Assembly: GCA_044892505.1 (NCBI GenBank)
Contig: CM097883.1
Location: 114,142,001 to 114,206,000 of the forward strand
Origin: Schmidtea nova
Taxonomy: Eukaryota
DNA length: 64,000 nt
Reading direction: 5' to 3'
Positions 16,460-64,000 of the stretch are shown here, in pieces (the stretch's first letter is position 1; the number at the start of each line of letters is the position of its first letter). The notes beneath the pieces were generated by a model. The model made no database searches. It had not been told where the DNA came from and saw only the letters and a list, made by a program, of their open reading frames with translations. The position numbers were made by a program, and so were the translations under genes.

Positions 16460-16479
16460 TCCTTTCATCAGCAGCACCC

Positions 16480-22617: not shown

Positions 22618-22632
22618 AAAATAAGTAATAAA

Positions 22633-42081: not shown

Positions 42082-45000
42082 TGTTGGGCCAAAACGCAAT
42101 TTGTTTTAATAAAGCGATAACCCCATAGGTAGAGAACGCGCAAGATTCCATTTTTAACCTTAGCTTCCATTAAAAAAATCCAACAATTAAGTGGAAAACA
42201 CCAAAAGGTGAAGATGAATCAAAACACAGCAACCGGTAGAATGCGCGCTAACTGCGAATTTATAAATATTTTCACTGAAATCTCGAGAAAAATTAAAAGC
42301 AGAATGTTTGGAAGTTAGAATAGGCAAAAAACCCATGGAAAGTGCCCATAAAGAACAGAAATTTGTCATAAAATCTTCAGTGCAGAAAAATTAACACAAT
42401 TCTAGAGGAAAATTGTGAATTTATCACAAAATTTCACATTTAACAATAGAAAGAATTAATATGGATCGAATATCATAAATTAAATCAAATCGAACAAATT
42501 TCGATTCAAACATAAAAATTTTTAATTAAAATAAATTATTTATAGTTTATAAAAAATTATTATACAAAAATATGGAATTAATTTTCGGAAAATCATTAGA
42601 ATTAATTTAGAAAAAATTAAGAGAAAATTCTAGAACAATTTGTTTTATTGCACTACCGGAGATAGAGAAAATTTGATGGTATATATACCGCCATCAAAAT
42701 GGCAGATTTCAGATTTTGTGGAAAAAATTTTTTTGTTTTGCTAGCTAAGAGAATTTGTGAGAAGTTTTCCGAAAATTTTTATTGCTAACCTAATTAAAGA
42801 GAATTTGTACCATTTGCCTCAGAAATTTAGAATTGAAGATATTGTGGAAAGGATTCAATTTATTGGAAAATCGGAATTGGTCAAAATTTAGTTCCCGGAG
42901 CACGAACCTTTTTAGTAGAAAACAAAATTTCTTCCTGGAGTTTGAAATGTTAGGTTTATTTTATTTTTGTTTTATTTTAAACTGATTCGAGGGGTATGGG
43001 ATCGTCGGTAATCATGCCTGTCGATCATCCCATTCCTCACGTTCGTATTATTTAAAAATGTATTATTTTTGTTATTTTATATAATGCAATTATTTTATTT
43101 TGATATTATTAAATATTAAAAATTTATTTTATTCAGTTTGATTTTGAAAATATTTTTGTTTATTATACTCACAAGTTCCCAAAACACCTAAAATTACTAT
43201 GAGAATTGTCGAAATAAACTTATGAAATTAAATAATTTTTTTTTTATCTCCCATATCTTCTGACGATCCGTCCAGCCTTGGTTGTGCGGATCTGTTAGTA
43301 GCCTGGGTGGATCGTTGTCTGATTGGTAATCGGCCAGCCCATATTTCCACTTTAAGGTGAGGCTCATACATCCAAATTCTCGTCATCCCAACTGGGGAAT
43401 CGTGGTTTGGCCAAGAGCAAGGATTTGTTATATTAATGATTTTTATTATAATAGAGTATCATATTTTCTATTATCTACATAAGCAATTTCGTAATACAAC
43501 ATAAAAATATTTCTAACTCATGTCTTGAAATCTAAAATAGGAAATATTATTGATTAAAAAATCGACTCGTACTCGCCTTCACCTTCGCACTCTCAATGAC
43601 AATCATCTTATGAGAAAATGCAAGAAAAATGGATACTAATGATGGAAAGAAAATCGCTCGAAATAATGCTCAAGTCTGGAATAATGCTCATGAAGTGAAA
43701 TGAATTGTGAAACAAGTATTGATTTGATCTGAATTAAAACTCATTATGGTCTAAATAAGTTTTCCTGTGAATCTTGTTTTTCGAGAGCCTGAAATTCCTG
43801 AGCGAAGTGTCCCGAAAAATTCGCGCGCACTTTGTTTAGGAAGCTCATGCTCAACAAAACCGAAATTTACTTCACTTGATGTTAAAAATATTCGTCGAAA
43901 AAGGTGTAACTTATTTTATTTTATTTTTTATTTTTATTTAGTATATAAATCTCTTTAGATTAAATGCATATTTAGATCTCGAAATTCATGGATAAAATAT
44001 TTTTATCAAGAATAAAAATTTGCTTTTTATTGTACTGCAAAACTTTTAAAATGAAAAATTTGCTTTTTATTGTACTGTAAAAATTTTAAAATGAAAAAAT
44101 TGTAAATCAAAAATTTTCCTAATATTGTTAATATATAAAAGATTTTATCAGTTCATAAAATTCCCGAGAATTTGAAAATCAAAAATTGTACTAAACTCCA
44201 TAAAAATTATAAATTGAAATTTTAGTATTAATAAATTTTTATCTTTTTGTAAAAATTTGGATTCGGAATTTTATAAAAAAGGAAAATTTAAGATTAATAT
44301 AGTTATCTCTTAAAATATAAAAATTTAATTTCACAAACCTATATTATCAAAATTATAAATTTTATCATCATTTAATAAAATTGGAACATTAGAAATCCAA
44401 AAAAGTAATATAAAAATTAGTATTATTATTTTAATGATTATTATTATTTTAATTTAAAAATATTTTATATAGTGTATTTAAATTATAATATAACCCCCCC
44501 CCACGATATCTTAAAAATATTAATACATCACTCATTGCAAGAAATCACACCCTTTTCACTCAATAGCATCACCCATACTAATATACAAGCAACATACATA
44601 TAAAATACAATATACACACATACACCGTATCGTTCAATAACATTCAACAATCACATGCATACAAGCAAACCATACAGAAAATCTACACCGTTAGGTTAGT
44701 TAGCATCATATATCCATAGCTCATTCAGGCACTCGCTCAATCACATCCACATCGTTTATTTTATCCAACCGACCAATGAACACACCAACACATGCATTTA
44801 TAACAATAGGAAGTCCACCACCGAACTATAAAAGAAAAAAAAACATAAACGTGATTCACCACAATAGGTATTTCCCACAAATCTATAACAAAATATAGCA
44901 GCCTCATTCACCTTCAGATCATCACCTTAGAAATTATTTTCATTCATCTGTGAACATACCTCGCTGACAATATAACTTCCAATACCACTACCCAACAGTT

Positions 45001-46399
45001 GACAATGATTTATATATACCCCACTTCATATTTTAAAAAAAATTTATAATAATAAAAAGACATTCAAGACAAAAAATTTATTGATAATAAACATCATTCA
45101 CAACAGTTCCAGAAAACAGTCTGGTAGGGATTTCCCATAAGGAAGTTGGTTCCGTTGAGGAGTAAAACAACATCCAATTTGGGTACGATTTCTCGAAAAT
45201 ATCCAATCGTACTATACGTCTGGCAGATATGAGAACGAAACAAAAAAATTAATTCCACAGAGCAACTGCCGCTTGCGACGATTGATAGATTTTATTTTTG
45301 TGGTTCCTCATCGGAAAGCTGCTGGAGAATTTTTATTTAAGCCCTCGAATTTAAAGGGAAAAGATATTGGTCTATCATAGACTTGGCATTGAACGACGAA
45401 CGTGGTGAATCTAGTGGCCTCTGAATCAAGTGATAATAAAGTAAAAATATATTGATAAATCTAAATTACCATTTTCGACGATGATAAATTTTCCAATTGA
45501 GTAGAATTTCATAATAGGAATTTGAGAGAAATTAAATAAATAAATGATAATTCAAATTGTTATCATTTACAATTGAGGGGAAATAAATTTTTCTTCTGGT
45601 TCAAACAAGAAGAATATTTCCGTTTGGTAAATTGCACCTAATTTTGTTCCAAATAAATTTAAAAATGCAAAAAATTTTTTAAATTAAATTCAAGAATTAA
45701 ATAATTTCAAAAGACCGAAATCTGATGGTTATAAATTATAAGCAAAAGTTTTACTAAATCAATTTCGTTACTAAGGCCTCAGCAAAATTTTAAAATCAAA
45801 ATATTGAAATTTTAATAAATATTTTATTATCAATTTAAAGCAAGATAGACAATAGGATTTGAATATAAATAAAGTTTACATAAATTTTAAATATAAAAAA
45901 CATAACAATTTAAGGAAATTGCGATAATGATAAAAATTTGGGTCTAAATAAGAGCAATTTGTATATTCCCAAATATATGCATTTTCTGAAGGAATAATTG
46001 ATCACCTAATTGAGTTGCGATAATATTTTCGAATGCATGCTTGCGAATAGAATAAAAGTGCTCAAATAAATTAATTGATTAATAAAGGAATCACGATTCA
46101 GCGAAAATATTCAAATAAAAATCTCGTAATAAACCTATACAGTGATAGAACAGATAAATTAAGGGGGACAAAAATGGGCAAGAAACCTTCTATCGGTAGC
46201 CCTTGGACCCAGGAGATATTCGGTCAATCATAGTTTCGTATTGACGACGCTCACTGATTGCGAATACCCACCCACTTGTTACAGTACCAACGTTACATAG
46301 TGACGGGTAACAAGGTGGTAATTTCAATGTTTTATGTGTTGAGTTGTTGATGAGAGCCATAGAAACGTCAAGGTCATATTGACGGTCAACAACCCACCA
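42082..46399 (+). repeat. Putative 5' LTR (~4.3 kb) of the giant element
   Basis: Starts TGTTGGG with similarity to the LTR B start; carries the A/B 3' block at 46150-46360; ends CCCACCA 10 nt before the PBS. Confidence 0.6.
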
Positions 46400-46409
46400 T
46401 ATAAAAATT

Positions 46410-46427
46410 TGGGGGCTCAGCCGGGAT
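46410..46427 (+). promoter_or_regulatory. Primer-binding site, tRNA-Pro type
   Basis: TGGGGGCTCAGCCGGGAT, 16/18 identical to the classical tRNA-Pro PBS TGGGGGCTCGTCCGGGAT. Confidence 0.85.
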
Positions 46428-47819: not shown

Positions 47820-48185
47820 ATGGAGAAAATTATAAAAATATAAAAATATAAAAAATATAAAAATACAAAAATATATGTATAAAAATGGCTGAATATTCTG
47901 TTAGTTAAAAATATAAAAATATAAAAATATAAAAATACAAAAATATATGTATAAAAATGGCTGAATATTCTGTTAGTTAAAAATATAAAAATATAAAAAT
48001 ACAAAAATATATGTATAAAAATGGCTGAATATTCTGTTAGTTAAAAATATAAAAATATAAAAATATAAAAATACAAAAATATATGTATAAAAATGGCTGA
48101 ATATTCTGTTAGTTAAAAATATAAAAATATAAAAATATAAAAATACAAAAATATATGTATAAAAATGGCTGAATATTCTGTTAGT
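47820..48185. repeat. 64-72-bp tandem repeat (5 copies) in the element leader
   Basis: tggctgaatattctgttagt at 47886, 47958, 48022, 48094, 48166. Confidence 0.9.
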
Positions 48186-48331: not shown

Positions 48332-48814
48332 ATGGAATCGATTGAGCATATTTTACTACGAATCGAGTTGTTTTTCGATTTTAAAAATGACCCATTGCAG
48401 GTGTTGAGCGAGAAACTCGAACGAGTAAATGGAATAAAAGATGAATTATTGTTGAATCCTAGACCACAACCTGAGAATCTAATAGTGATTGCAGGAGTTG
48501 TAGGAACAACAAACGATATTTCGTTAGAAACAATTTACGAATTACAACGATTGCGACTGAATAATCCGAATTTTAATCTGAAAATACAAGAATGGATTGG
48601 TAAAATCGATAAAATCATGGACAAGCTAGAGAGATCGATAAATCAACAGATCGATTCGTTCGAAAGATGTTATATTTGTCGACAAAAAGAAGCGAACATT
48701 TTATTCATGCCATGTGGGCATTTGTGTTATTGCCAGCCGTGCTCTAGAGAAATAAAGAGGTGCGTAATCTGCAAACAGACAATTGATGACAAAATCATCG
48801 TATTTTGTTCGTAA
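48332..48814 (+). CDS. C-terminal RING finger protein (IAP/MDM2/LRSAM-type RING), probable E3 ligase
   Basis: CYICRQKEANILFMPCGHLCYCQPCSREIKRCVICKQTI. Confidence 0.85.
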   Translation: MESIEHILLRIELFFDFKNDPLQVLSEKLERVNGIKDELLLNPRPQPENLIVIAGVVGTTNDISLETIYELQRLRLNNPNFNLKIQEWIGKIDKIMDKLERSINQQIDSFERCYICRQKEANILFMPCGHLCYCQPCSREIKRCVICKQTIDDKIIVFCS

Positions 48815-49836
48815 AGAATGTCGATTCGAAATAAATGTTTTAGTCATGTTGAATATCGTCGATCATCCAGTACTCCAAATCGTCGTAAAAATTAAATAAA
48901 CACAGAACACTAGGTAATTAATGATTGAGAGTCGTGTAAAAACATAACAAGTAACGGCTAATGCCGAAAAATCAAACATTAGGAAAATGGGAATTTGTGA
49001 CAAAGTTACTTTTCTTTTCTTTTTGAATTTTCTTTAATATTATTATAAATCCTCCTCATCATTATTATATCGATACAAATTTCATTACTATAAATCTTCC
49101 TCATTACTGTTATTATATCGATTATCATTATTATATCGACCATTAGGACGAGCAATAAGTAGAGTAATAAAAATTGATTTTATAAGGAGAATCTTCTGAA
49201 ATAAGAGCGATAAATGAGTGTCTGAGTAGGAAATGGGAAAATAGTACACAAATTCATAACTGAGCTATCAAAAGATAGTACGACAAATTTTAATAGAGCT
49301 ATCAAAAGATAGTACGCCAATTTTTTTTGTGACAAAAGATAGTTTGTAATAAATGGGAAAAACTTGATTATCCTGAAGAGAAAAAGTAGAATAGGTTAAC
49401 CATCGCAAATGTCGATAAATTTCGTTTGTGACTGATCATCACAAATTGCGAAACAAGTTGACGCGATTATTTTACGATTTTGAATTAGGTGAAAGGGCTA
49501 AACCCGTAATGTTCGTCTTATACACCAGTTTGCCAAGGCATGATTGGTACACTGAGGTAGAAGGCAGTAACATGAGTAAAGAGAAAGTTGCTGAGAAAAT
49601 CAGATGCAGATTTTAGAAAGTCGAAAGAGTAAAAAGTGAATTTCGATGATTATAGTAGATGATAGTATAATAAGAAAAGATTCTACCATGGTAGTTAGGG
49701 AATTGATTCGTAATTGAGAAGTAGTAGAACAATTTGAGAAAAACAGTCAGCAACAGCGAATTTAGTTAAAAATTTGAGAATAGGGAAACGAGTGATTGAA
49801 TAGCATAAAGAGAATAATCGAAGACGGCCGAGAAAA

Positions 49837-50408
49837 ATTGAGAAACTTTGAGAGTTCATGTATGTGAGAGACTTTGAGAGTCCAGATAATTGAGAAACTT
49901 TGAGAGTTCATGTATGTGAGAGACTTTGAGAGTCCAGATAATTGAGAAACTTTGAGAGTTCATGTATGTGAGAGACTTTGAGAGTCCAGATAATTGAGAG
50001 ACTTTGAGAGTCCAGATAATTGAGAGACTTTGAGAGTCCAGATAATTGAGAGACTTTGAGAGTCCAGATAATTGAGAGACTTTGAGAGTCCAGGTAATTT
50101 AGAGACTTTGAGAGTCCAGATAATTGAGCGCTCTGGGAGAGACTTTGAGAGTCCAGATAATTGAGAGACTTTGAGAGTCCAGATAATTGAGAGACTTTGA
50201 GAGTCCAGATAATTGAGAAACTTTGAGAGTTCATGTATGAGAGACTTTGAGAGTCCAGATAATTGAGAAACTTTGAGAGTTCATGTATGAGAGACTTTGA
50301 GAGTCCAGATAATTGAGAAACTTTGAGAGTTCATGTATGAGAGACTTTGAGAGTCCAGATAATTGAGAAACTTTGAGAGTTCATGTATGTGAGAGACTTT
50401 GAGAGTCC
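49837..50408. repeat. ~26-bp minisatellite with two alternating variants
   Basis: gagagactttgagagtccagataatt and gagaaactttgagagttcatgtatgt repeated about 20 times. Confidence 0.92.
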
Positions 50409-51175
50409 AATGTTTGTGGATATTGTTGAGAAATTTAGGAAAAACGTTTGAGAGATAGAATTAAATAAAACTGCGCAGAAAAAATTTTGTTATGACAGAG
50501 AAAAACATTGAACGCGAATACTTAAGGTGTAGTAATACAAACCGTTAATAAGAGCAGATAAAAGACATCGAGAAATACTTAGGAAATAAAATAATGGCCA
50601 TGAATAGATAACGAACAAGACATTTTTTCCTCAAATGCCGAGATGAGTATGATCATACTGTTATTATAGTATTAGTAATATTATTATTATTGTTACTATT
50701 ATTATTATTATTATCAGGGTATAGATAACTGATACGACCATATAGATAATTATTACGAGATATAGATAATTTAAAATCTGAGCTCAGAGTAAAAGGGGGG
50801 TAAATGGCGTCGATGAAGAAGCGATATTTTTATTTAGATTGTCCAACAGATCAAAGCCAAGCCAAGAGATAGTCAAATCAATCAGTTATTGAAGAGGTAT
50901 ATATAGAAGAAAAGAAGAAAAAGAAGTCTAATTGAAAAGGAAAGAAGTAAAAGAAAATAAATCAAAGAAGATCCAATTGAAGATAAAAGAAAGATCAGCA
51001 ATCGATATTAAACACAAATTGACAATATTACCAAACCAACCAAGTTCGTAAAGTCGAAAGATAAAGAGTCAAATCTATTAAAAACGACGAAAGGAAATTA
51101 AAAAGAAATAAAGCTGATAAATAAAGAAGTAAAATCCACAATATTAGAAAGTTTGTAGCCGATTTTCAGAAAGAA

Positions 51176-54100
51176 ATGGAGGAGAATCAGAAAGTTACCA
51201 GTGCAAACTCAGAAGATAATTTATTAAAAGAAGAGCAGAAAATAACCAGTCCAAAGGTAGAAGATAATTTGCAGGAAGAAGAAAAAGAAGTAATAACAAT
51301 GAAAATGCAACTACAACAGAATATCGAAGGAAAAGTAAATGAAATGATAACCGAATTATCAGACGTTGAAATTGAAAGAAAGGGAAATGTATATGAATTT
51401 TCAGTAAAAGATATGGAGGGAGAAGAAAAGAAGAAGTTTGTGGAGAAATATAACCGAAAAAGAAGAGAAAGAAGAAGCAATGATGATACATGTAGCATGG
51501 ACGAGAAATGGGATGAATCTACGACAATCAAATTAGAAGAAGTGGCACAAAGATTGTTAACAATTACCATGGAAGAAATGACGAAAATGGATCAAAAATC
51601 AGAAGAAAAAAGAAAATCAGCAAAACTCGAAAGATCAAGACAAACGGAAACGTCAAAGACCGAACGATTAATCAGTAACCTAAGCAAGAGTGCAGGAAAT
51701 CAATGTGAAACAACAACTGAATTACTAAAATGGGTTATAAAAAATAGTGCAAATATATCAAATATGAGATTGATAGTGAAAGAAATCGAGAAATGCAGAC
51801 GTTTATGCCCTTGGTATTCAACACAATTTGATGACATCATGAGAAAATGGAAACAACTGGAACAAACAAACGATGATCCACAGATGTGCAGATTGAAAAT
51901 TCAGTTTCCGAGTCTAGAAGAAATAAAGATGAATGTATCATTAACAACAAAGATCAAAGAGATAAAAGAGAGATTACCATTCAATTTACCATTTCACTTG
52001 AAATATGATGGAGAATCGCTGGATGATGATATAGAAATCAGTGTAACCCCGATACAAATCGAAACAAGTAATAAATTAACTATTGATAAAATTGCAGGAA
52101 GCGAGTTGACCAGAAAAGCGAGAGGTGAAGATAATCCCGAAACAACGATAATTGCAATGATGAAAACTCCAGCTGGACCAACACTTACAATTAACATCGA
52201 GGTTAATGGTGTGAAAGTTGACGCGATGATAGATACTGGCGCAAATATATCAGCAATAGATATTGATATGATACCAGAAATGTTACGGTTATGCATCGAG
52301 AAAACATCAGTAGACGTAATAACATGCAGTAAAGAATCTGTCGATATCGTTGGAAAGATATGGACAGACATCGAATACAGAAATGTAAAAATATCAACTT
52401 ATTTGACAGTAATAAAACAACTGGGTGCATCATGCATTATTGGAACAGACTTAATACCAAAACTGTTAAAAGGATCTGTAATTGATTTGAATACGATGAA
52501 GTTGAAACACCAAATTGAAGAAAATTGCACAAGAGAAACAGCGACAGAACAATCAAATCAAGAAATGACCAGAAAAGGACAAGTATGTATGTTTCGAGAG
52601 AATAAAAATGACGATTGGCTACATCGTATATTAACTGCGAGCAGAAAAGTAAATCAGCCGACAACAATATCTGAACAACCTAAGATAGTTGACGATGTAA
52701 AAATGGAGCACCGCAAAAAGATGGAATTGATCATTGAGATTACCAAAGAAATTATGCCAGAATGGTCACAAAGTAAAAATCTATTTGAAATATTGGGAGG
52801 AGTAAGCTTAATGGTTGAGGAATATGCCAAAGGAAATGAAACGACAGAAGCGATGAATACCATAAAAGAAAGATTACCAATATTATTTACAATTGCCAGT
52901 TTTAAAGATGAGATACCGTTATATCACGCAATAAAAAGTGGGAATGAACAGAGAATGTTTGAAATCATAAAACTCATGGAAAAGTGCAAGCAACATACCA
53001 ACACGAAAAACTGGAAAGATCAAACACCCTTGATGGTAGCAATTGAAAAAGGAGGATCCAAGAAACTCATAGCAGAACTGATGAGAACCGGATCAAGTTT
53101 TAAAGAAAGAGATGATAAAAATGAAACGGTGTTATCTTATGCAGTGCAAGCAAATAACCATCAAATAATCAAATATATTATGTCAAATGCTACAGAAGAA
53201 GATATTGAAGTGCTCAGTTCAGATCCAAATCCATTAGTAAATGCAGTGAACAAAGATGCCGACGAAACAACAGCAAAAATGATTAAATGGTTACATCCAG
53301 TTACGCACGAAGGAGTGATAAATGTCAATGACAGATTTGAAGACGGTGAAAATATGATAATGAAAAGAGCCATGAAAAGAAAATGGAAAATGTATAAAAC
53401 GATTAAAGCATTGCTGCGAAGACCTGATTTCAGATTTACAAACAACAAAAAAGAAAAAGAAAGAATTGGATCTAAAAGACATGAATTATATCAGCAAGTT
53501 ATCATATGGAAAGAAAATATAAAAGAAAGCAGAATTCACCGAAGCTGGAACAACGCCAAAGATGAAATAACCAAGAGAGCAAATATAAAAGCCGAAGCAG
53601 ACGAAATAGCTAAAAGATATGAAGAAATAATAAAATTAATAAATGTCGAGGACGACATTTTAAACAGAACCGAGGGTGGTTCTGATGATCACAATGAGTC
53701 TGACGATGAAGGTGAAGAGAATAACAACAACAAAACAAAGAAAGATGACAATGAGAGTATCAACAGAAACAATGACAAAGACGAGAAAGATGATGGAAAA
53801 AGCAATAACGACGAAATTGGGAACAAAAGTGATGAACCCAAGCAAGAAACTTCAAACTATGAAAAACGAACAGCATGTCTACATAAAACTCGAATAAAAG
53901 ACATAATATTACTGATATTGATGCTGTCAGCATTGAAAGGAACGGAAGCTGATGACAAGAGAAAACCAGTACAAGTATTAACACAAGGAGCAGATAATGA
54001 AGAAGCATGTTGGAGTAGCATCAACTTGCAAAGTAAAGGAGATAACCCAGTCAAATGTCAACGAGCAGAAGGAGGAGAAATCCGAATAAATGGATTAAAA

Positions 54101-54286
54101 CGAGAAACAAAATATAAAATCTGTGTTTACAAAAAGAAAGCAGCACAAAGATTGTTTAGAACACTCGTACGCCAGATAGTAGCACATAATGGTTCAAAAG
54201 TCACCCAAGAAGACATAAAAGTCATATTAACCGACGAACTAGATGAGAACATCAGAGTGTCGTCGAAACGCAAGCTGCCGGAATAA
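51176..54286 (+). CDS. 1036-aa polyprotein: acidic N-terminus, ubiquitin-like domain, retroviral-type aspartic protease, ankyrin repeats, acidic linker, internal signal-like segment
   Basis: UBL-like RLKIQFPSLEEIKMNVSLTTKIKEIKERL...HLKYDGESLDDD; INIEVNG...IDTGA...IIGTDL; ANK-like PLYHAIKSG, TPLMVAIEKG, TVLSYAVQAN; IILLILMLSALKGTEA. Confidence 0.85.
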   Translation: MEENQKVTSANSEDNLLKEEQKITSPKVEDNLQEEEKEVITMKMQLQQNIEGKVNEMITELSDVEIERKGNVYEFSVKDMEGEEKKKFVEKYNRKRRERRSNDDTCSMDEKWDESTTIKLEEVAQRLLTITMEEMTKMDQKSEEKRKSAKLERSRQTETSKTERLISNLSKSAGNQCETTTELLKWVIKNSANISNMRLIVKEIEKCRRLCPWYSTQFDDIMRKWKQLEQTNDDPQMCRLKIQFPSLEEIKMNVSLTTKIKEIKERLPFNLPFHLKYDGESLDDDIEISVTPIQIETSNKLTIDKIAGSELTRKARGEDNPETTIIAMMKTPAGPTLTINIEVNGVKVDAMIDTGANISAIDIDMIPEMLRLCIEKTSVDVITCSKESVDIVGKIWTDIEYRNVKISTYLTVIKQLGASCIIGTDLIPKLLKGSVIDLNTMKLKHQIEENCTRETATEQSNQEMTRKGQVCMFRENKNDDWLHRILTASRKVNQPTTISEQPKIVDDVKMEHRKKMELIIEITKEIMPEWSQSKNLFEILGGVSLMVEEYAKGNETTEAMNTIKERLPILFTIASFKDEIPLYHAIKSGNEQRMFEIIKLMEKCKQHTNTKNWKDQTPLMVAIEKGGSKKLIAELMRTGSSFKERDDKNETVLSYAVQANNHQIIKYIMSNATEEDIEVLSSDPNPLVNAVNKDADETTAKMIKWLHPVTHEGVINVNDRFEDGENMIMKRAMKRKWKMYKTIKALLRRPDFRFTNNKKEKERIGSKRHELYQQVIIWKENIKESRIHRSWNNAKDEITKRANIKAEADEIAKRYEEIIKLINVEDDILNRTEGGSDDHNESDDEGEENNNNKTKKDDNESINRNNDKDEKDDGKSNNDEIGNKSDEPKQETSNYEKRTACLHKTRIKDIILLILMLSALKGTEADDKRKPVQVLTQGADNEEACWSSINLQSKGDNPVKCQRAEGGEIRINGLKRETKYKICVYKKKAAQRLFRTLVRQIVAHNGSKVTQEDIKVILTDELDENIRVSSKRKLPE

Positions 54287-54480: not shown

Positions 54481-55929
54481 ATGAAAAAACTAGCCAGTAT
54501 AATTGTCCTATGCTCCGTATTCAACACCTTATCAAGAAACAATGCAGAAGAATACTTTTTCAGCACAACAACAGCTAATCAGATTGCCTATAAAACAATT
54601 GAAAAGAGACCTAAAAACTCCTATGAAAACATTCAATTACATGTCCTATTGACAAGCTTATCCGGAACATTGCTATATTTAACAAACGACGATGGTAATC
54701 AATTAATTTTAACCCTCTATAATGAAATCAGTGAAAGAATGAAGATAGAATACAAAGAGCTTGATTATGTTGTAGAACTTTGCGAGTTATGCCAAGATCA
54801 AAGCACCAGCGAATGTGAATTGTACAAATATCGATCAATCAAAGTAAATATCAAGATTGCAGATAAACTCGCTGTCAAATGTAACCAAGGCAAGGAAACA
54901 TTCTTTGAGTATGGAGAAAAACAAATTACTAAAACTGATTACCCAACGATAAAGGAAATTGACAAAACAACAACACTTATCTACGTCATGAACACACCTC
55001 AACATGACAAAGGATACCCCAATCCTGAACAATTACAAGGTTGTGTGTATAAAGTGGAATACAATAATAAAACGCTGAAAATGGAAAGGAGCAGTGAAGA
55101 GATAAAAAACGAATGTCGAAAAATATGTACAGACAATATCTGTAATGAAGGTAAATGTTATGAAACATTTTCCGAGAAACCTATCTGTAATTGTAAATTT
55201 ACCCCAAAAAACGGTCGGTACTGTAACACCAGCAGCATTAGCCGGAAATACCGAAGAATCAACGCACAAAAGCAAACACTTTGGATAGATTATGTAAAGT
55301 TATTAATAAATAACAACTCGAAGGAGCTAATTTTTGAAATGGAGAACAAAGAATCCAGATTGTACATACGGAGAGAAAGAGCATCAATTACAGTCAAATA
55401 TGAAAACAAGAAAGACTGGTATATAGAAGGCTTTTTGGCCAACCAGGTTGATGAAGTCAAACTGATAATAATAGGCATGAAGTTCACGGAGAAAGGAATC
55501 CATTTCCATATTATCAATCAGAAAACCGAAATCTCAAGAGAAATGCCTGTTTTAGAAAAGATGAATGAAATACCTTGGAAACTTATAACGATTGCAGATA
55601 GTGTAGAAATGATATATAAGATACACCATTCACGGTACGATTGGTGCAGTACTGACATGGACGAAATTAGGAATAATGACAGAACATGTGCGGAAATTGA
55701 AGTAGTTCCTCCAACGAACGAAGCGAGAAGCCTAACAATGAAAAAGTTACCAATGGAGACAAATTATAAGATCAGTCGTCAAACATTCGTCAGTACATTA
55801 GTAATAGAAATTATAATCCTAGTCACCGGAACTATTGGAATTTTTGTCCTCGTATACAAGAGAGCAAAACGGAAACTCGAACAACGAGTAAATATGATTT
55901 TGGAACAAGTTCATATGACCCCAGTATAA
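54481..55929 (+). CDS. Type I membrane protein with an EGF-like domain
   Basis: Signal peptide MKKLASIIVLCSVF; CTDNICNEGKCYE...CNCKFTPKNGRYC; TM LVIEIIILVTGTIGIFVLVY then KRAKRK; ends TPV. Confidence 0.8.
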   Translation: MKKLASIIVLCSVFNTLSRNNAEEYFFSTTTANQIAYKTIEKRPKNSYENIQLHVLLTSLSGTLLYLTNDDGNQLILTLYNEISERMKIEYKELDYVVELCELCQDQSTSECELYKYRSIKVNIKIADKLAVKCNQGKETFFEYGEKQITKTDYPTIKEIDKTTTLIYVMNTPQHDKGYPNPEQLQGCVYKVEYNNKTLKMERSSEEIKNECRKICTDNICNEGKCYETFSEKPICNCKFTPKNGRYCNTSSISRKYRRINAQKQTLWIDYVKLLINNNSKELIFEMENKESRLYIRRERASITVKYENKKDWYIEGFLANQVDEVKLIIIGMKFTEKGIHFHIINQKTEISREMPVLEKMNEIPWKLITIADSVEMIYKIHHSRYDWCSTDMDEIRNNDRTCAEIEVVPPTNEARSLTMKKLPMETNYKISRQTFVSTLVIEIIILVTGTIGIFVLVYKRAKRKLEQRVNMILEQVHMTPV

Positions 55930-56078: not shown

Positions 56079-56714
56079 ATGAATCCGAACAACGAGAATC
56101 AAAGTTATCAAACATCAGTTCCAACGTTCAATGAACCATCAAATCAAACTCAGTTTCCAGAAGATACCAATATACGAGAAAGAGAAGGGTCACTGCAAAC
56201 CCCAGTAATCGAAAATGAAACGCAAAATCCAACAATTGACGATAGAAATCTGATATACCAAGTCGAAATTCCACTATTTGATGAAACCATGAACCCAATT
56301 CAAACGACATTCGTATTAAATCAACAACCAACAAATAGCCAGACTCAATCAATATCAGCTCCGATGGTTTATCAGCAGACAATGACGCAAGAGTTATCAT
56401 GGAAAACGCAATGTGAATTATTAAGCAGGATGTTGAATCAAGCCTATGCACAATGGAAAAACGAACAAGCTTTGTTAACAGAAAGTGTAAACAGAAATTT
56501 ATCATATCTTGCTAAAATGGAAGAACAACAACAAATGATAATCCAAAAGGACCAGAGAATTGAATGGTTAACAAGACATACGGAGTGGCAAACAAACGAA
56601 ATTAGAAGATTGAATGAGACGCGAGAAGAAGTCAGAGCATGGTATAACTGGTTAGACAATTTTCCAGAACCGGTTCGAGAACCTGACTCGACGGGAAGGG
56701 ATGAACTATTATAA
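56079..56714 (+). CDS. Q/N/T-rich disordered plus coiled-coil protein
   Basis: Open frame; first ATG 2 nt after a CAG acceptor (track starts at TTG 56070). Confidence 0.7.
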   Translation: MNPNNENQSYQTSVPTFNEPSNQTQFPEDTNIREREGSLQTPVIENETQNPTIDDRNLIYQVEIPLFDETMNPIQTTFVLNQQPTNSQTQSISAPMVYQQTMTQELSWKTQCELLSRMLNQAYAQWKNEQALLTESVNRNLSYLAKMEEQQQMIIQKDQRIEWLTRHTEWQTNEIRRLNETREEVRAWYNWLDNFPEPVREPDSTGRDELL

Positions 56715-56808
56715 AAATTTAAAACCAGTGTAAATAAAATGTAAAAATGTGAATATGAATAAAACTTGGTATAAAGAGCAAAACGAAAAAATTATAAATT
56801 TTTTTAGA

Positions 56809-58212
56809 ATGCAGACCGAGAATCAGCAGAAACAAGAAGAATTGATCGAACTATATCAGATACTACAGAGACAACGGATAGAACCAACAGAATTTCAAGA
56901 AAGATTTAAATGTAAAGTATGTAGAAATTTATTGATAGAACCCAGACAAACTGAATGTGGATGTCGAATATGCACTAATTGCGTGATGAAAATAATACGA
57001 ACTAAGCAGAAGCTATGTCCTGAATGTGGTGAAGCAATAATAGATCAATTTGACCAAACCAGACCAGATATCGCAATGAATCGGGAAATTATGAACGCAG
57101 CAACAACCTGTCCAAATAAACCATGTGTATGGAGTGGGCCAATAAAATGGATCGCCAAACACCTTTATAATTGTGATGGTACGAAAGCCAAATGCAAGTG
57201 GTGTGAAGAAGAAATGTTGAAGAAAGTCAAAGACAGTCATGAGGAAATGTGTGAACAACGACAGGAAATCTGTGAGTTTTGCAACGAAACAGACGCTTGG
57301 ATAGTGTTAAAAGATGAGCATTGGAATATAGAAGAAGGGCAAGTATGTGACGAGTATGAAGGTAATTGTAATCAATGTGGAATGGCAGAAAACGTGAAGC
57401 TAAAAGAACATTGGGAAATATGCGAAAAGAAGCCTACTGCATGTCCACTAAAATTATTCAATTGCAAAGTGAGATTACCAAAAGAGGAAATACAAAAGCA
57501 TGTAGATGAAAATAGTGTCAATCATTTGAGAACCGTTGTGGAAGCTATTGGAGCAACCGCACTGGTAATTGGAGAAGCCAACACAGAAATAAAATCTCAC
57601 AAAATCATGATACAAGAGATGTTGGATACGAGAGGAAACTTTGAAAGAATAAAAGAACAAATGATCCAAAAAATGATACTATTAGACCAGAAAATAGCAG
57701 AAATATCAACAATCCAACAAAGGTTGGAAAGCATATTGCCAGCAATGGAAGAACTACCCGTCACACCCTACTATTGGAAAATCACAGAATTTACAGAGAA
57801 ATTGAGACTAGCAAGAGAAGGAGGTCAACGTGTATGGACAAGTCCACCTTGTCACAGTTGGAAACATGGTTTCAAGCTTAGATTCAAAGTATATCTAACG
57901 GGAGACGGACTAGGAGCCGGAACTCATTTATCTGTATATTTTCAAATATGTAAAGGAGATTATGACGATTGGTTAGAATGGCCCTACGATTGCGATATAA
58001 CTATGATGATCGGAACAAAGGAAAACAACGTTCGGGAAGTATTCAGACCAAACTTGAAGAAGGTAGAAGCAGCTTATAGGAAGCCGATCGAAAACTACAA
58101 CGTAGCTGTAGGAAATCCACGTTTTATTGCATTACATTATTTAACCACAGAACAATCATTATATTTGGTAAATAATATCCTGTATCTGATTATCGAAGTG
58201 AGGAAGCCGTAG
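56809..58212 (+). CDS. TRAF: Full-architecture TRAF (RING, TRAF Zn fingers, coiled coil, MATH)
   Basis: CKVCRNLL...CGCRIC...CPEC RING; CPNKPC, CEFC, CPLKLFNC fingers; YYWKITEF...SPPC...YLTGDGLGAGTHLSVYF...DDWLEWP MATH domain; ATG 56809 preferred over GTG 56749. Confidence 0.95.
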   Translation: MQTENQQKQEELIELYQILQRQRIEPTEFQERFKCKVCRNLLIEPRQTECGCRICTNCVMKIIRTKQKLCPECGEAIIDQFDQTRPDIAMNREIMNAATTCPNKPCVWSGPIKWIAKHLYNCDGTKAKCKWCEEEMLKKVKDSHEEMCEQRQEICEFCNETDAWIVLKDEHWNIEEGQVCDEYEGNCNQCGMAENVKLKEHWEICEKKPTACPLKLFNCKVRLPKEEIQKHVDENSVNHLRTVVEAIGATALVIGEANTEIKSHKIMIQEMLDTRGNFERIKEQMIQKMILLDQKIAEISTIQQRLESILPAMEELPVTPYYWKITEFTEKLRLAREGGQRVWTSPPCHSWKHGFKLRFKVYLTGDGLGAGTHLSVYFQICKGDYDDWLEWPYDCDITMMIGTKENNVREVFRPNLKKVEAAYRKPIENYNVAVGNPRFIALHYLTTEQSLYLVNNILYLIIEVRKP

Positions 58213-58432: not shown

Positions 58433-59602
58433 ATGACTGAAAGGAAGATCGTGAAAATACGAGAAGATGACAGATCATTCAAAAGTTTATGCGAATTAAT
58501 GAAAAGAGGTAAAGAAAAGATGTCAAAACCAATTACCTCAGAATTGATTTATTGTCAATTTACACGAACAATATCGAATGTTCCCAAGGAAAGAAATTAT
58601 GGCAAATTCAAAACTATCGATGAAACGTTGAAAAATGAGAACCGAAGATATATAACCTTTTTACAACAAGACAATTTCTATGAGAAGCAATACAGAAAAT
58701 TCGCCAAAGATGGTTTGTATTTTGCAGGGACAATTGAGAAACCCGATAAAGTAACCTGTGTATTTTGCAGAATTGAAATAGAACCTTGGAGAATTAACGA
58801 TGATCCACTAACAGAACATAGAAAACTTTCACCCACATGCCAGTTTGTGTTAAAGGCATGCGAAAAACTAAGAAAACCAACATCAATGAACAACGACAAA
58901 GAAGAAAAACCCAAAATAGTAACGATAACTTCAACAGGTCCAGCAAAGATACGATTCATAGAAATTGATCCAAAATATACGATTAATGGGAGAACTGACA
59001 CCTTTGCAGATAAAAAGATGGGTATCAGATTAGCAATAGAAGGTTTTTATGCAATAAATGAATCAACAGCTGAATGTTCAGAGTGTGGAATACAATATCA
59101 ATTACCAAAAGAGGAAGGAGAATACCTGAAACACAACGAATATTGTAAATATGGAGAAGAATTATATGAAGACGAAGAACCGATCAATTATAAAAACCCA
59201 GAGATGCCTGTTAATGAATTATTAGTAGATAAGATATTAGACGAACCACGAACTCAAAAGGTAATGGAACGCACCGGCAAAAGCGAAATATTTGTGAAAG
59301 AAGTTGTCAGAGAGAGATTGAGAAGAAATGGAGAAACATTTGGATCAACCCTAGAATTTTTCAAAGCTATGATACAGTTCACCAGAAAATCCCAAGTTGT
59401 CAACCCAGAATCATGTATCAAGAAAGTTATATTAAATAAACACCCCTGTTCAATCTGTTGGATAAAGAAAGTGGAAGTTATTCATTTACCATGTGGACAT
59501 CTGTTGGCATGTGAAAATTGTAGCAATAAATTGAGATTGTGCTCAATGTGCAGGAAACCGGTCGACAAACGGATCAAGGGATTCCGTTATGCCGATCAAT
59601 AA
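58433..59602 (+). CDS. IAP: Inhibitor of apoptosis (one canonical BIR, one degenerate BIR, C-terminal RING)
   Basis: FAKDGLYF...DKVTCVFC...W...DDPLTEHRKLSPTCQF; RTDTF...EGFY...AECSEC...HNEYC; CSICW...LPCGHLLACENC...CSMCR. Confidence 0.95.
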   Translation: MTERKIVKIREDDRSFKSLCELMKRGKEKMSKPITSELIYCQFTRTISNVPKERNYGKFKTIDETLKNENRRYITFLQQDNFYEKQYRKFAKDGLYFAGTIEKPDKVTCVFCRIEIEPWRINDDPLTEHRKLSPTCQFVLKACEKLRKPTSMNNDKEEKPKIVTITSTGPAKIRFIEIDPKYTINGRTDTFADKKMGIRLAIEGFYAINESTAECSECGIQYQLPKEEGEYLKHNEYCKYGEELYEDEEPINYKNPEMPVNELLVDKILDEPRTQKVMERTGKSEIFVKEVVRERLRRNGETFGSTLEFFKAMIQFTRKSQVVNPESCIKKVILNKHPCSICWIKKVEVIHLPCGHLLACENCSNKLRLCSMCRKPVDKRIKGFRYADQ

Positions 59603-59736
59603 TCCAATCAAGCAACCTTGTAAATAAATTGTAAAGATTTTAACTATAATCGATGTATACAAGTATTATTTAATAAGCATGAGCAACAAAAAATGTATAA
59701 ACAAAAGGAAATTACCCATGTTATTATTATTTCAGG

Positions 59737-61284
59737 ATGAATATACAACAATTGATAGACATCCTAGATCAGGAGATGGCCAAAAGACAAGAACAACTAA
59801 ATCAAATGAGAAATTATGAACAAAGAATGGAAGCCATCCAAGAGAACGTTAAAATGATTGAGAAACGAACCCAAGAGATCAATAAAATAAAAGAGGAAAA
59901 TGAGGAACTACGAAAAATAATAATCGACAAGGCACATATCGAAGCTGAACTAGACAATTATAAACGAGAGTACAGGGAAATGGAGAGAAAACTCGAGCAC
60001 GAACAACGGAAGTCGGTACCGTTGAAAAATCAAGCGAGATTAAGAAAAGAGGAGCTCGAAACTTATAAAAGAGATACCGAAACAAGGTACGACAACACCA
60101 TAAGATTCTATCAGCAGCAACTCGAAAGTGAAAGAAACAGATATGAAGCCATGAAAAAGAAATGGGAAAAGTGTCGAGATGAAGCATTTGTTTTGAGAGG
60201 ACAACCTCAAAAGAAGCTTAAAGTCAGAACAAGAAACATTGAACCTGAAAGCGAACAAGAAAAGATCATTAGAAAGGTTAAAGCAGAGGCTAGGAAATGG
60301 AAACAAGAACACCAAGATTTATTGGAAATGGCTCGACACAGAAAAATGCTACACGAAGAATTACTAAGACGGAGAGACGTTCAAATCGAGGCTCTGAAAG
60401 AGGAATGTCATTGGTATGCAGACATACGTCATGAGGAAACGGAGAAACTCAGAAAAGAAATATTCCAGTTGAAAACGAGCGGACAGTTCAGAGAAAGAAG
60501 CATAAAGCATCAAATAAAGTGGCTAATAGAACAAGCCAGAACATGGAAAAAGACCTGGAAAAGAACTCGAGACGAACTACGAGAATTTCCAAAGAAGCTG
60601 ATGTCGATAAATGAAGCAGAATTGTGGGAAAATGCAGAAAAGCAAGAAATAGAAAACAAAGAATTAAAACGACAAATTCAATTAAAAACTGAATGGAATC
60701 AAAGGAGAATGAAATTTACCAGGAATCAAGAAGCTCGTATCAAATATCTGGAATTCGAAAATAGGCAATATGATCAACAAAAGAATATGGATGATAGAAG
60801 TATTGAAGAATTGACAATCGAATTGACTATTGCAAACCGTGAAGTCAACGGATATCGAGGAACAAATACTCATAAAGATATTGTCATTCAACACCAGCGA
60901 AGGCAGATAGAAGAGACAAAGGCCGAATGTGAGAAAGCGATCCAGCAATCGCAGTATGAGATTGAAATGGCTATCCAAAGTTTGGAAGAAAATCGCCAAA
61001 ACTATGAAAGAGAGATTGAAAGGTTGAAAAATATGGAAAATACGAGAGAGCTCGAGATAGAAAAGGAACAGCTGAGTGAAGAACTCGATTATATGACCTA
61101 TTTGCTAGATGAAGAGATAGAAATCTCAAGAACTTTGCGAGAGAGAGTTCAGAGCCTACAAAATCAACCTCCAATAATTCTATGGCCACTATATCCAACA
61201 CCAATACAACCTGTACATTTGGAGCAAGAAAATCCTCAAATCGAAGATGAAGGGTTCGGAGAAATTGAAGAGACGTTTGTATAA
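59737..61284 (+). CDS. 515-aa long coiled-coil protein
   Basis: Intact ORF, E/K/R/Q-rich heptads throughout, ends EETFV. Confidence 0.8.
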   Translation: MNIQQLIDILDQEMAKRQEQLNQMRNYEQRMEAIQENVKMIEKRTQEINKIKEENEELRKIIIDKAHIEAELDNYKREYREMERKLEHEQRKSVPLKNQARLRKEELETYKRDTETRYDNTIRFYQQQLESERNRYEAMKKKWEKCRDEAFVLRGQPQKKLKVRTRNIEPESEQEKIIRKVKAEARKWKQEHQDLLEMARHRKMLHEELLRRRDVQIEALKEECHWYADIRHEETEKLRKEIFQLKTSGQFRERSIKHQIKWLIEQARTWKKTWKRTRDELREFPKKLMSINEAELWENAEKQEIENKELKRQIQLKTEWNQRRMKFTRNQEARIKYLEFENRQYDQQKNMDDRSIEELTIELTIANREVNGYRGTNTHKDIVIQHQRRQIEETKAECEKAIQQSQYEIEMAIQSLEENRQNYEREIERLKNMENTRELEIEKEQLSEELDYMTYLLDEEIEISRTLRERVQSLQNQPPIILWPLYPTPIQPVHLEQENPQIEDEGFGEIEETFV

Positions 61285-61523: not shown

Positions 61524-62099
61524 ATGAGATTATTGAAGCAAAGATCAGAACCAAAACAACAAACGATATCAAAAGAAAGATTCAAAAAATGGAAAAGAGC
61601 AACAGAGCAATATTATCAAGACCAAATAGACCAATTGAAGGAAGTAGTGAGCAAAGATAGAAAATATATCGCACAAATGGAGCAAGAGTGCGAGACGATG
61701 GAAATAATCAAGCGAGAAAATTATCTATTTCGCCAACAAAATGGTCTCACTCAAAAATATTGCGACAGACAGAAGCAAGAGATTGACAGACTCAAAAGGG
61801 AAATAAGCAGTGAACAGAACACTGATAATAAAAGGAGAATTACGATCGAGTCATTACAACGATCATTGAAGAACAAACAGAAAAAGATTATAAAAAGAGA
61901 GAAACAGATAATAAAGTTGAAAAGTGAAATCATCGAAGCAAAGTTTGATACGTTCAAAGCAAAGAAAGTTGTAGAAATCAAAACGGCAGAAAATTACGTC
62001 CTCAAAGAACAAAGGCGAAAAGAAGCAGACGAGATTGCAAAAATGGGAAACTGGAAGCCAGAAAGTCCGTTAAAGCTAAATGAAAAGATGAAAGAATAA
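61524..62099 (+). CDS. 191-aa basic coiled-coil protein
   Basis: Intact ORF after a TAG acceptor. Confidence 0.75.
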   Translation: MRLLKQRSEPKQQTISKERFKKWKRATEQYYQDQIDQLKEVVSKDRKYIAQMEQECETMEIIKRENYLFRQQNGLTQKYCDRQKQEIDRLKREISSEQNTDNKRRITIESLQRSLKNKQKKIIKREKQIIKLKSEIIEAKFDTFKAKKVVEIKTAENYVLKEQRRKEADEIAKMGNWKPESPLKLNEKMKE

Positions 62100-62192
62100 A
62101 ATATATCCAAACTCATGTAAATACCCCTGTAAATAAAAAAGAGAAAATTTGAAAAATCATTAAACAAAATTGAATCTATAAATCTATAGAAA

Positions 62193-63017
62193 ATGAGCAA
62201 TCTAATGAGGATCACAACAACCATCATGATATTTATAATTACAAACTGCCGAAGCGAAGAAGCATTGAGTCAATGTCAAGCAAGCCATCCATTTAGAAGA
62301 TACGATAGCATTTGTGTAAGCTATCAAGAAATTTGTAGCACCAGAAATGAGGAGTGTCAGCAAATCCAACTACAATGTCAACAATGTCCTAAATCCAGAG
62401 AAGATTCAATCACCATCCTTAAACAATTGAGAAATGAAACTCAACAATTAATCCAACTACAAATCTCCTTAACCAAAAGAAACAATCTTCAACTAAAGAA
62501 ACAGCTCGAAAACCAATCATCCTTCAAACAGTTAACGACCGAACTAAAGAAATTGAGCAAGTTAATAGAAAAATCTCTAAATAATAAAGATGAAGTTAAT
62601 GAGGAAAGATCAAGTTTCACAGAGGAGTTAAATCAAAAACTAAAAACTCAACTTCATCAGACCGAGAGAATTATAAAGCAATTAATATTACCCGAAAAGC
62701 AAAAGGAGATTATCCCTAAACAAGGATCAACCAATAAGGACGTCAGAGACCGAGAAGCAGCCATCACAGTCGTTCTACAAGGCATCAGTCTTTTCGCGGT
62801 CATAATGATCCTTAGCATTGCTGCATCAATCGGATTAGAAAAAATGAAATTAGAAAAAGCGAAAATCCAGCTGAATACCATCAAACGAATCACCCATGAA
62901 GACAACAACCCGTCAGAAAATTTTCTAAGATCAATATTTGAAGATCCAGTTCCAGAACAGCCTAATTCTGAGACATCTACAACCTCGGTGCAGATGAATT
63001 ACTTCTATAAACAATAA
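62193..63017 (+). CDS. Type I membrane protein with Cys-rich N-terminus and coiled-coil ectodomain
   Basis: Signal-like MRITTTIMIFIITNC; six Cys; heptads; TM AITVVLQGISLFAVIMILSIAASIGL. Confidence 0.75.
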   Translation: MSNLMRITTTIMIFIITNCRSEEALSQCQASHPFRRYDSICVSYQEICSTRNEECQQIQLQCQQCPKSREDSITILKQLRNETQQLIQLQISLTKRNNLQLKKQLENQSSFKQLTTELKKLSKLIEKSLNNKDEVNEERSSFTEELNQKLKTQLHQTERIIKQLILPEKQKEIIPKQGSTNKDVRDREAAITVVLQGISLFAVIMILSIAASIGLEKMKLEKAKIQLNTIKRITHEDNNPSENFLRSIFEDPVPEQPNSETSTTSVQMNYFYKQ

Positions 63018-63213
63018 TACGATTCGATACCCCTTTTGACAAGTCATGTATTTTCTTCCATTCATTTGATCTATCTATCTATTTGTATTCTCATCTTTAA
63101 CAATATCATCATTAAATCATAACCCTGTGTAAAGATCGTAACGCCTTTGTAAATAACAAAATTATTTATCGTCATTATTCAAATTCTTTCTATTAGAAAC
63201 ACAAAAATCAACA

Positions 63214-64000
63214 ATGAAATCGTACCGAGAAGTTTTCCTAATCGCCATGATCACAACAATTTATTGTCATCTCGAAGAAACCCAGAAATCAAGCCAATTA
63301 AGCCCAAATCAACAATGTAATAAAGAACCATTGGAAATCTCTAACAACAAACAACTATCCGAAAAGATTGAGCAAGCCAAAATCGAAATTCAAAATACCC
63401 TTTTCAATCAAAATGATGAAATTTCAGGTCTAAAAAGAATAGCAAGGATAATATTAGCCGATTTAGCGATCAGAGATACATTCGAGGATATCTTTGATAA
63501 TGATCGAGAAACCCGTGACGTAATAAAAAGTCTCACCAAAGAACTTAAAACGAATATAGGCAAGTTAATCGATCAGCTAACGATAAATTCATCAAGTCCG
63601 AAATGTCTGAAACAAATCCAGAAAATTCATCATAACCTGTCCCAGCAGATTTCCGAAGTAGGAAACCAAACGGCACAACAACTAAGAAAGGCTTATTTCG
63701 AAAGCCTGACATTTAAGAATAAAATCCACAATCACATAAACGAGATATCGAAACCGGATAACAATCAAGGCAGAGACAAGTGCAGAGCACCCCTCCTATC
63801 ATCCAAACGAATTCTCGATATCTGCCTGATCATCCTTAACTTTTTCCTAATAATCGGAATTTGTGGTATAATACGGTTAGGCTTGACCGCCAAAAGAATG
63901 ATGAACAACATGACCTCCGAACAATCCAGAAGAAAAGATGACAAGAAACAGTTGATCAATACCGAGTCATTCAAACTATTCCAGTCGAAGATCCAACCAA
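63214..64000 (+). CDS. Type I membrane protein, 3'-truncated by the window edge (not in the ORF track)
   Basis: Manual translation MKSYREVFLIAMITTIYC...; TM ILDICLIILNFFLIIGICGIIRLGL; no stop before 64000. Confidence 0.75.
   Translation, partial: MKSYREVFLIAMITTIYCHLEETQKSSQLSPNQQCNKEPLEISNNKQLSEKIEQAKIEIQNTLFNQNDEISGLKRIARIILADLAIRDTFEDIFDNDRETRDVIKSLTKELKTNIGKLIDQLTINSSSPKCLKQIQKIHHNLSQQISEVGNQTAQQLRKAYFESLTFKNKIHNHINEISKPDNNQGRDKCRAPLLSSKRILDICLIILNFFLIIGICGIIRLGLTAKRMMNNMTSEQSRRKDDKKQLINTESFKLFQSKIQP

Follow-up and report, generated by a model that had tools for sequence, protein, structure and literature searches.

A giant, gene-rich Burro-type LTR retrotransposon of Schmidtea nova without Gag, Env, reverse transcriptase or integrase

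The window analysed here is a stretch of 64,000 nucleotides (nt) from the planarian Schmidtea nova (assembly GCA_044892505.1, contig CM097883.1; G000:C2:114142001-114206000 in our numbering), which from position 42082 onwards is occupied by a giant long terminal repeat (LTR) retroelement. An earlier note, made from the letters of the window, had described an LTR of about 4.3 kb, a primer binding site (PBS), leader repeats and at least ten intact open reading frames (ORFs) on the same strand, and each of these features is borne out. Extension of the contig, which the note had proposed, uncovered a matching downstream LTR and the second copy of a target site duplication (TSD), and the element runs from 42082 to 4.7 kb beyond the window end, a total of 26,575 bp. 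Its interior holds exactly ten plus-strand ORFs of at least 160 amino acids (aa) starting with ATG, which cover 12,051 of 17,939 interior bases. Its parts are the following, in window positions.

42078..42081, plus strand: TSD AACG, with its second copy directly after the 3' LTR
42082..46399, plus strand: 5' LTR, 4,318 bp, TG...CA, with conserved ends and an interior type in common with a pol-bearing copy
46410..46427, plus strand: PBS, 18 nt, for tRNA-Pro(TGG), starting 10 nt after the LTR
47833..48185, plus strand: leader tandem repeat, 72 bp x5
48332..48814, plus strand: ORF1, 160 aa, IAP-type RING without BIR (Pfam)
49836..50409, plus strand: leader tandem repeat of 26/52-bp units
51176..54286, plus strand: ORF2, 1,036 aa, in-frame remnant of a Burro polyprotein
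54481..55929, plus strand: ORF3, 482 aa, signal-like N-end, likely LamG-EGF-LamG, transmembrane segment (TM); neurexin/Crumbs-like by Atlas features
56079..56714, plus strand: ORF4, 211 aa, no family; a second family (see below) has a 116-aa ORF in the same place, to which it is 38% identical
56755..58212, plus strand: ORF5, 485 aa, full TRAF with RING, zinc fingers and MATH (Pfam)
58433..59602, plus strand: ORF6, 389 aa, IAP with BIR and RING (Pfam)
59737..61284, plus strand: ORF7, 515 aa, coiled-coil-like, ending in E-T-F-V; 30% identical to a second-family ORF
61524..62099, plus strand: ORF8, 191 aa, coiled-coil-like, no Pfam family above cut-off
62193..63017, plus strand: ORF9, 274 aa, signal-like N-end, six cysteines, coil, TM, tail
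63214..64000, plus strand, ending 8 bases past the window: ORF10, 264 aa, signal-like N-end, coil, TM; the 3' LTR follows 330 bp later
G000:C2:114206339-114210656 (64339-68656 in window numbering): 3' LTR, 4,318 bp, beginning 339 bases beyond the window end

The two LTRs differ by 1 mismatch over 4,318 bp, and the insertion is young. The 3' end of host tRNA-Pro(TGG) genes, with CCA added, is the complement of the PBS; a tandem array of these genes with a 308-bp period lies at G000:C1:459.6 Mb, and the pattern has 899 matches genome-wide. Four-bp TSDs flank 5/5 other copies of the element, and the LTR pairs of three other copies have 0-1 mismatches, these copies being top matches to the window LTR and for that reason biased towards young ones. 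An N stretch in the leader (<400 bases) is too short for pol, and an Rfam scan of 41000-64000 gave no match.

What is missing from this interior is best seen next to a second element, referred to here as the partner, at G000:C2:437567364-437597578. The partner (30.2 kb; its LTR pair differs by one gap) has the LTR, PBS, leader and ORF1 in common with the window element and a different interior, in which a single frame encodes a polyprotein of about 4,890 aa from its ATG, with Gag, CCHC, MATH, viral fusion glycoprotein, protease (PR), reverse transcriptase (RT), RNase H (RH), integrase (IN), ankyrin and FN3 domains. None of RT, RH, IN, Gag and Env was found by Pfam in any of the ten ORFs of the window element, and the partner's Gag, BCL2-like region, Env and RT-RH-IN gave no tblastn match at E 0.01 against the whole interior. 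That no RT or integrase is visible, as the earlier note had remarked, is thus true of the entire element. It had left the choice between gag-pol further downstream and a non-autonomous element; the former is excluded, because the 3' LTR starts 339 bases past the window and the interior is without pol, and the latter stands.

The one retro-type enzyme is a protease, again as first noticed. It carries the DTG motif and lies in ORF2, together with a post-Gag piece, a SUMO-like piece, ankyrins and an FN3-like start, and without a Gag core, MATH, BCL2-like part, Env, RT, RH or IN. ORF2 is an in-frame patchwork of four pieces of the partner polyprotein, to which they are 44, 46, 64 and 41% identical. 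At 4-fold degenerate sites, three ORF2 segments differ from the partner in 17/36, 9/20 and 19/40 cases (saturation 0.62), as against 1/40 for ORF1, whose counterpart in the partner leader, a RING ORF, is 96% identical. The LTRs of the two elements show 2.0% ungapped mismatch. Since ORF2 has diverged widely at such sites while the LTR and ORF1 are near-identical, the coding regions must have split long ago, with LTR and leader still being exchanged.

LTR interiors fall into many types, and these cut across the pol-less and pol-bearing classes. Base-level alignment is unreliable between different types, which were compared by shared 15-mers; nine pol-less LTR copies were taken from a plus-strand marker list in genome order, where 9/12 copies fetched yielded an LTR. 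For 5/10 pol-less LTRs the nearest of 23 other LTRs is a pol-bearing one. The window LTR has 0.81 of its 15-mers in common with the partner and at most 0.48 with the nine pol-less copies, the figure of 0.81 being a selected one, since the partner was found using the window LTR, and the other four cross-class cases being unselected. The 2.7 kb from 43582 to 46281 of the window LTR are common to only 1-3 of the 23 other LTRs, with conserved ends.

Exact 22-mer markers match G000 1,617 times for ORF9, 1,141 times for the TRAF, 248 times for the partner RT and 2,195 times for the LTR-PBS junction (reversed control patterns, 0 matches); as each count comes from a single exact 22-mer, with the ORF9 and TRAF markers picked for conservation and the RT marker taken from one lineage, the 6.5:1 ratio of cargo to RT is rough, and a sample of 100 junctions gave 69:11. 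In this sample, made up of the first 100 LTR-PBS junctions of C1, an ORF9 marker was paired with 59 and an RT marker with 11, and 27 of the 30 unpaired ones were fetched (10 of the cargo type, 7 of a partner-derived deletion class, 10 interrupted in the leader). Pol and the gene array were found together in none of the 97/100 junction copies paired by marker distance or fetched, nor was pol present in the cargo copies examined. Conversely, the array follows the polyprotein in 0/17 pol-bearing copies: among the 16 further ones, 0/16 have a homologue of a window ORF in the 7 kb after the polyprotein, and 13/16 reach the start of the LTR about 1.0-1.5 kb after it. The scored copies are intron-free and their proteins 97-100% identical.

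Two structural variants were seen. Partner-derived copies of a third class, identical in kind of PBS and leader (7/100 junctions), skip the stretch between a point shortly before the polyprotein and the core of the integrase, with an open frame of >1,200 aa (ankyrin, FN3-like, TM) in the three copies read. A sister copy at G000:C1:380.82-380.86 Mb contains an internal tandem duplication of the leader, ORF1, ORF2, ORF4, ORF5 and part of ORF6.

The size of about 25-30 kb or more expected of a Burro element is reached by the window element (26,575 bp with 4,318-bp LTRs) as well as by the partner (30.2 kb), and the window element carries the MATH/TRAF, BIR, RING and ankyrin cargo. The single polyprotein, about 4,900-5,100 aa long and comprising Gag, Env, PR, RT, RH and IN, is found in the partner and is absent from the window element. 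Nor does the latter resemble a large retrotransposon derivative (LARD), which we take to have a large interior without coding capacity. It does combine two LTRs, a PBS, a TSD, the lack of RT and IN, LTR ends and PBS in common with a partner, and independent amplification, as non-autonomous LTR retrotransposons do. Having neither the polyprotein of an autonomous Burro nor the empty interior of a LARD, it is filed as a non-autonomous Burro derivative. The kinship with Burro that had been suspected is supported by the polyprotein remnant in ORF2 and by the Burro layout of the partner.

For Burro/GYPSM1 a one-frame Gag-...-Env-PR-RT-RH-IN polyprotein of 4,873 aa has been described, along with a cargo of MATH/TRAF, BIR, ankyrin, RING and Smc-like coils (PMC6431247 section 7). 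The partner has the same layout (about 4,890 vs 4,873 aa). The window element, whose kinship is judged by description, is like Burro/GYPSM1 in its giant size, long LTRs, tandem repeats and accessory ORFs, and in a cargo of MATH/TRAF, BIR, RING, ankyrin, SUMO-like and coiled-coil parts (PMC6431247); it differs in the absence of Gag, Env, RT, RH and IN and in the distribution of its cargo over ten separate ORFs. The much richer cargo that had been claimed is new only in part, since MATH/TRAF, BIR, ankyrin, RING and Smc-like coil parts were already listed for Burro (PMC6431247). Neither neurexin-like or receptor-like membrane ORFs nor a non-autonomous class are mentioned for Burro/GYPSM1 in section 7 of that paper.

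As to the individual cargo genes, ORF5 has RING, zinc fingers and MATH in one protein, as a TRAF should, and ORF6 has the BIR and C-terminal RING of an IAP. A search of 1.84 billion representatives gave no close relative of the latter (the best rows were 27-42% identical over the matched stretches), and the C-terminal part of ORF6 is 27% identical to ORF1. Database searches returned no relatives of ORF5, ORF3 and ORF9, and the blank for a TRAF means that search sensitivity was low. The neurexin/Crumbs-like assignment of ORF3 comes from an Atlas match of 0.95 (recognition 2792), with ten/ten best family matches in agreement and the TM placed by hydropathy; ORF3 gave no Pfam or PDB sequence match, and its single-sequence fold (predicted local distance difference test, pLDDT, 35) was too poor to use. 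It is an optional cassette between two similar spacers, missing from 4/4 sister copies and covered by reads at about a twentieth of the depth of its neighbours. No family was found for ORF4, ORF7, ORF8 and ORF10. A two-sequence profile of ORF7 gave one weak coil-type match in PDB, and an intermediate-filament-like tail motif seen by eye was not confirmed. C-termini of the form T-x-V, presumably a class I PDZ-binding pattern, end ORF7 in both families (window 61273-61284), ORF3 (55918-55929) and the partner polyprotein.

ORF9 is predicted to be a type I membrane protein. Its nearest Atlas clusters are mostly TNF receptors that have one cysteine-rich domain (CRD), all at <=0.84, the first being Grindelwald (0.84, recognition 1732, below the reliable range). 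Neither Pfam nor PDB supports a TNF receptor, and none came up in fold searches with the cysteine region (pLDDT 56, too poor). By eye, the tail has no exact match to what we take to be TRAF-binding motifs. The spacing of the six cysteines differs from the Grindelwald pattern given in the available part of PMC8024323. The likeness to single-CRD TNF receptors is weak and serves as a lead.

Among copies of the array, omega is 0.21-0.43 for ORF1-9, with p from 0.03 to 2e-25 (distinct variants, kappa 4.3), in a sample of 7-33 aligned pieces per ORF that are not independent and include some loci chosen by similarity, with transition bias corrected. Purifying selection is strongest in ORF7. The measurement was made among the cargo copies themselves, the shortened ORF2 included. 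The earlier note had called the cargo young or under selection; both hold, the insertion being young and the genes old and selected, and what falls is the either/or.

The age of the array is indicated by a second, distant Burro-type family that bears pol and env (G000:C1:364838442-364862629 and C1:552091156-552115674). After the polyprotein it has, in the same order, an ORF4 homologue (38%), a TRAF (35% over 453 aa), an ORF7 homologue (30%) and a signal-coil-TM ORF. Its LTRs (3.3 kb) themselves contain two ORFs of about 200-230 aa, and the polyprotein frames are broken in both copies seen. In a MATH tree, the three element domains lie on one side of a branch, not starred, that separates them from 19 presumed host ones (87/95, long branches). 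From the order kept in the second family and the grouping of the MATH domains, the core array is old Burro cargo. A fresh capture of the TRAF from the present host was considered and is not favoured, in view of the same homologue order and the same grouping.

Several signals bear on how ten genes could be expressed from one RNA. YAG lies <=6 nt from the ATG in 7/10 ORFs, vs 101/750 ATGs in the flanks (p 7e-5), and this acceptor-like site is kept in 98/100 ORF starts compared; the inter-ORF spacers measure 40-239 nt and have it just before the ATG. At ORF7 one further feature was found.

59631..59735, plus strand: GT...AG segment that extends up to the acceptor preceding ORF7 and is cleanly missing from one genomic copy

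Losses of this kind occur in 2/28 ORF7 starts, with two different donors and both ending exactly at the AG before ORF7. The second takes out a shorter part, in another genomic copy, and the first joint was also seen in sequencing run X1. Judged by their joints, these losses are the trace expected of reverse-transcribed spliced RNA. A candidate splice donor, a G-run followed by a donor-like GT, stands before ORF2 at 50795-50806 (GT in 12/18 and GC in 6/18 matches). Four sequencing runs of unrecorded kind mapped over 50420-64000 cover spacers as well as ORFs and are read as DNA.

Taken together, the window element is a complete and recent LTR element of Burro type that has neither Gag and Env nor RT and integrase. 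Probably a rarer, pol- and env-bearing partner copies it in trans, its ten genes are likely expressed from spliced RNAs, and the IAP and TRAF among them are predicted to act as pro-survival ubiquitin ligases. Mobilisation in trans we infer only from near-identical LTRs and TSDs. The ancestor would have had a polyprotein plus downstream array, the layout kept by the second family; one lineage may have kept the polyprotein and lost the array, and the other may have trimmed the polyprotein in frame while retaining the array and adding to it. RNA of the window element would be packaged together with partner RNA and primed by tRNA-Pro, then copied and integrated by the partner enzymes, and template switching might swap LTRs, leader and cassettes between the two. 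Spliced messages would express the array. By analogy with the Burro1 B-IAP, the ubiquitin-ligase activity of IAP and TRAF may keep the expressing cell alive, and cargo proteins would be selected by favouring cells in which the element is being copied.

The gene behind this analogy, a BIR-RING gene of Burro1 (B-IAP, Lee et al. 2026), is reported in the available part of PMC13465017 to protect planarian stem cells from caspase-mediated apoptosis. According to the same partial source, it is like ORF6 a gene with BIR plus RING carried by a Burro element (PMC13465017). Unlike in Burro1, the IAP with BIR is here found in a pol-less element, and the LTR-matched partner has a leader ORF with RING only.

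A number of observations weigh against this interpretation. The evidence for splicing consists of one small segment at one acceptor, and a join of the leader to an acceptor was found in none of 20 further copies, drawn from unassigned PBS junctions. ORF10 has an omega of 0.84, by which purifying selection is not shown, and ORF3, ORF4 and ORF10 fail to reach significance under a stricter count (variants in >=2 loci). Some copies can do without TRAF and IAP, which one recurrent deletion removes together. The uneven choice of markers, mentioned above, belongs here too. Finally, no polypurine tract precedes the 3' LTR, the longest purine run in the last 60 bases being 6 nt; this lack is a family trait, because the pre-LTR sequence of the pol-bearing partner is the same. 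A short perfect hairpin and a GC-rich word stand before the 3' LTR and are kept in the family of the window element and in the second family.

Dependence could also run in both directions, the partner supplying Gag, Pol and Env and itself needing the window element for IAP, TRAF and membrane proteins, as in a segmented virus. We regard this as possible but doubtful. The complementary contents of the two elements fit it, as do the presence of both halves in single elements of the second family and the LTR types shared across classes; in addition, the 20 top BIR loci that were fetched include 18 copies of ORF6, the remaining two resembling exons of other genes. However, the partner has a MATH domain, a RING gene in the leader and ankyrins of its own and so is not free of host-modulating parts, its deletion copies (7/100 junctions) indicate that plain parasites arise easily, and TRAF and IAP are jointly lost in the recurrent deletion class. 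A broader version, which we put forward tentatively and do not expect to hold in full, would be a two-part virus-like system: one part would provide capsid, enzymes and fusion protein, the other, several times more numerous, a spliced array with a self-contained receptor-TRAF-IAP survival module together with adhesion and polarity-binding proteins, the two being coupled by LTR swaps and mutually dependent, with host stem cells as a possible third beneficiary.

A different mode of expression would be that of an operon, in which spliced-leader trans-splicing and internal polyadenylation, instead of cis-splicing from one leader, would resolve the array. The 40-239-nt spacers, the acceptor-like site before the ATG and clusters of TGTA after each stop would suit such a layout (TGTA in spacers, 41 vs 16.5 in shuffles; TGTAnATA, 11 vs 0.9). 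Spliced-leader trans-splicing is reported from flatworms. AATAAA is not enriched in the spacers, though (12 vs 14.0 in shuffles), and planarian poly(A) sites are reported, in the available part of PMC5068929, to be without upstream UGUA, so that the spacer motif may equally well be a PUF-type site. Moreover, the two GT-AG losses amount to cis-splicing at the ORF7 acceptor, and internal cleavage would compete with the production of full-length RNA. An operon is rated as unlikely.

It is very improbable that the window element is a recent deletion derivative of an autonomous element with pol and array, its cargo selection inherited from that parent. Full elements of this kind are exemplified by the second family, but identity between ORF2 and the LTR-matched partner amounts to 41-64%, and 45-47% of the 4-fold sites have changed, selection was measured among the cargo copies, shortened ORF2 included, and pol and array coexist in none of the 97/100 resolved junction copies. 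A captured or domesticated host gene cluster between LTRs, suggested by TRAF, IAP and neurexin-like folds of host type, by the many TRAF genes of planarians (PMC6109357, in its available part) and by TRAF/MATH clusters on distal C2, is hardly credible in the face of >1,000 dispersed marker matches, of scored copies that are intron-free and 97-100% identical in protein, and of element MATH domains that group apart from the presumed host ones, and for the window locus it is refuted by copy number, LTR pair and TSD. The same copy count, which the earlier note had proposed to make, excludes single-copy host genes; with the 3' LTR in place, the outcome that it had named as fatal to its view (no downstream LTR, single-copy host genes) did not materialise.

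Replication-defective transducing retroviruses depend on a helper and carry cell-acting cargo in place of gag-pol-env, and complex retroviruses place accessory ORFs behind splice acceptors. By analogy, the window element may work like a helper-dependent LTR element with accessory genes in the style of a complex retrovirus. It is unlike the transducing retroviruses in that it is no single transduction event but a genomic lineage that has lasted long, numbers about 1,600 copies and has nine genes under selection, and in that its layout is of the Ty3/gypsy type and not that of a vertebrate retrovirus. Soybean is said to contain autonomous and non-autonomous LTR partners with LTR swapping (work of Du et al. 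in 2010). We know of no plant partner system whose dependent member carries ten host-signalling genes in an array. Non-autonomous pararetroviruses share homogenised regulatory sequence (PMC5491270), and plant partner pairs are held together by recombination (PMC5491270, PMC6894440), both according to the available parts of these sources. Such pairs, for which commensal or mutualistic relations have been proposed, are like the window element and its partner in their divergent interiors and in terminal or regulatory sequence shared via recombination. In the literature searched, no description was found of a non-autonomous Burro or of two co-evolving elements that have divided enzymes and accessory genes between them; the primary Burro papers (Grohme 2018, Jurka 2007, Lee 2026) and Du 2010 may hold part of it.

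Non-autonomous LTR elements are usually treated as non-coding parasites, and here it is the dependent member of the pair that is rich in genes. Protein-level selection acts on nine of these despite about a thousand or more copies able to complement in trans, which raises the question whether selection is linked to the individual copy through a small number of active copies per cell or through cell-to-cell passage in Env-bearing particles. Since most BIR-domain copies found sit in an element unable to copy itself, the reported mutualism between host and Burro1 may be separable from transposition.

The remainder of the window is mostly decayed, as had been stated: the long ORFs in 1-42000 are fragments of <=374 aa, judged decayed by eye. 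An ordinary Ty3/gypsy element lies on the minus strand at 16468-20230, with Gag, zinc knuckle, PR, RT, RH and IN recognised by eye in several frames and the RT-IN similarity also found by sequence comparison. Fragments at 15781-16242, 20888-21367, 22618-24354 and 26924-30301 are, by eye, what we take to be Maverick/Polinton-like pieces (penton-like, integrase-like, packaging-ATPase-like and protein-primed polymerase). Elsewhere on the chromosome, G000:C2:405-455 Mb contains dense clusters of diverged TRAF/MATH genes, presumed to be those of the host. Near the start of the window, 1242-1739 and 1820-2031 consist of a 120-bp tandem repeat and of 37/24-bp repeats rich in TGAGTCA/TGACGTCA words.

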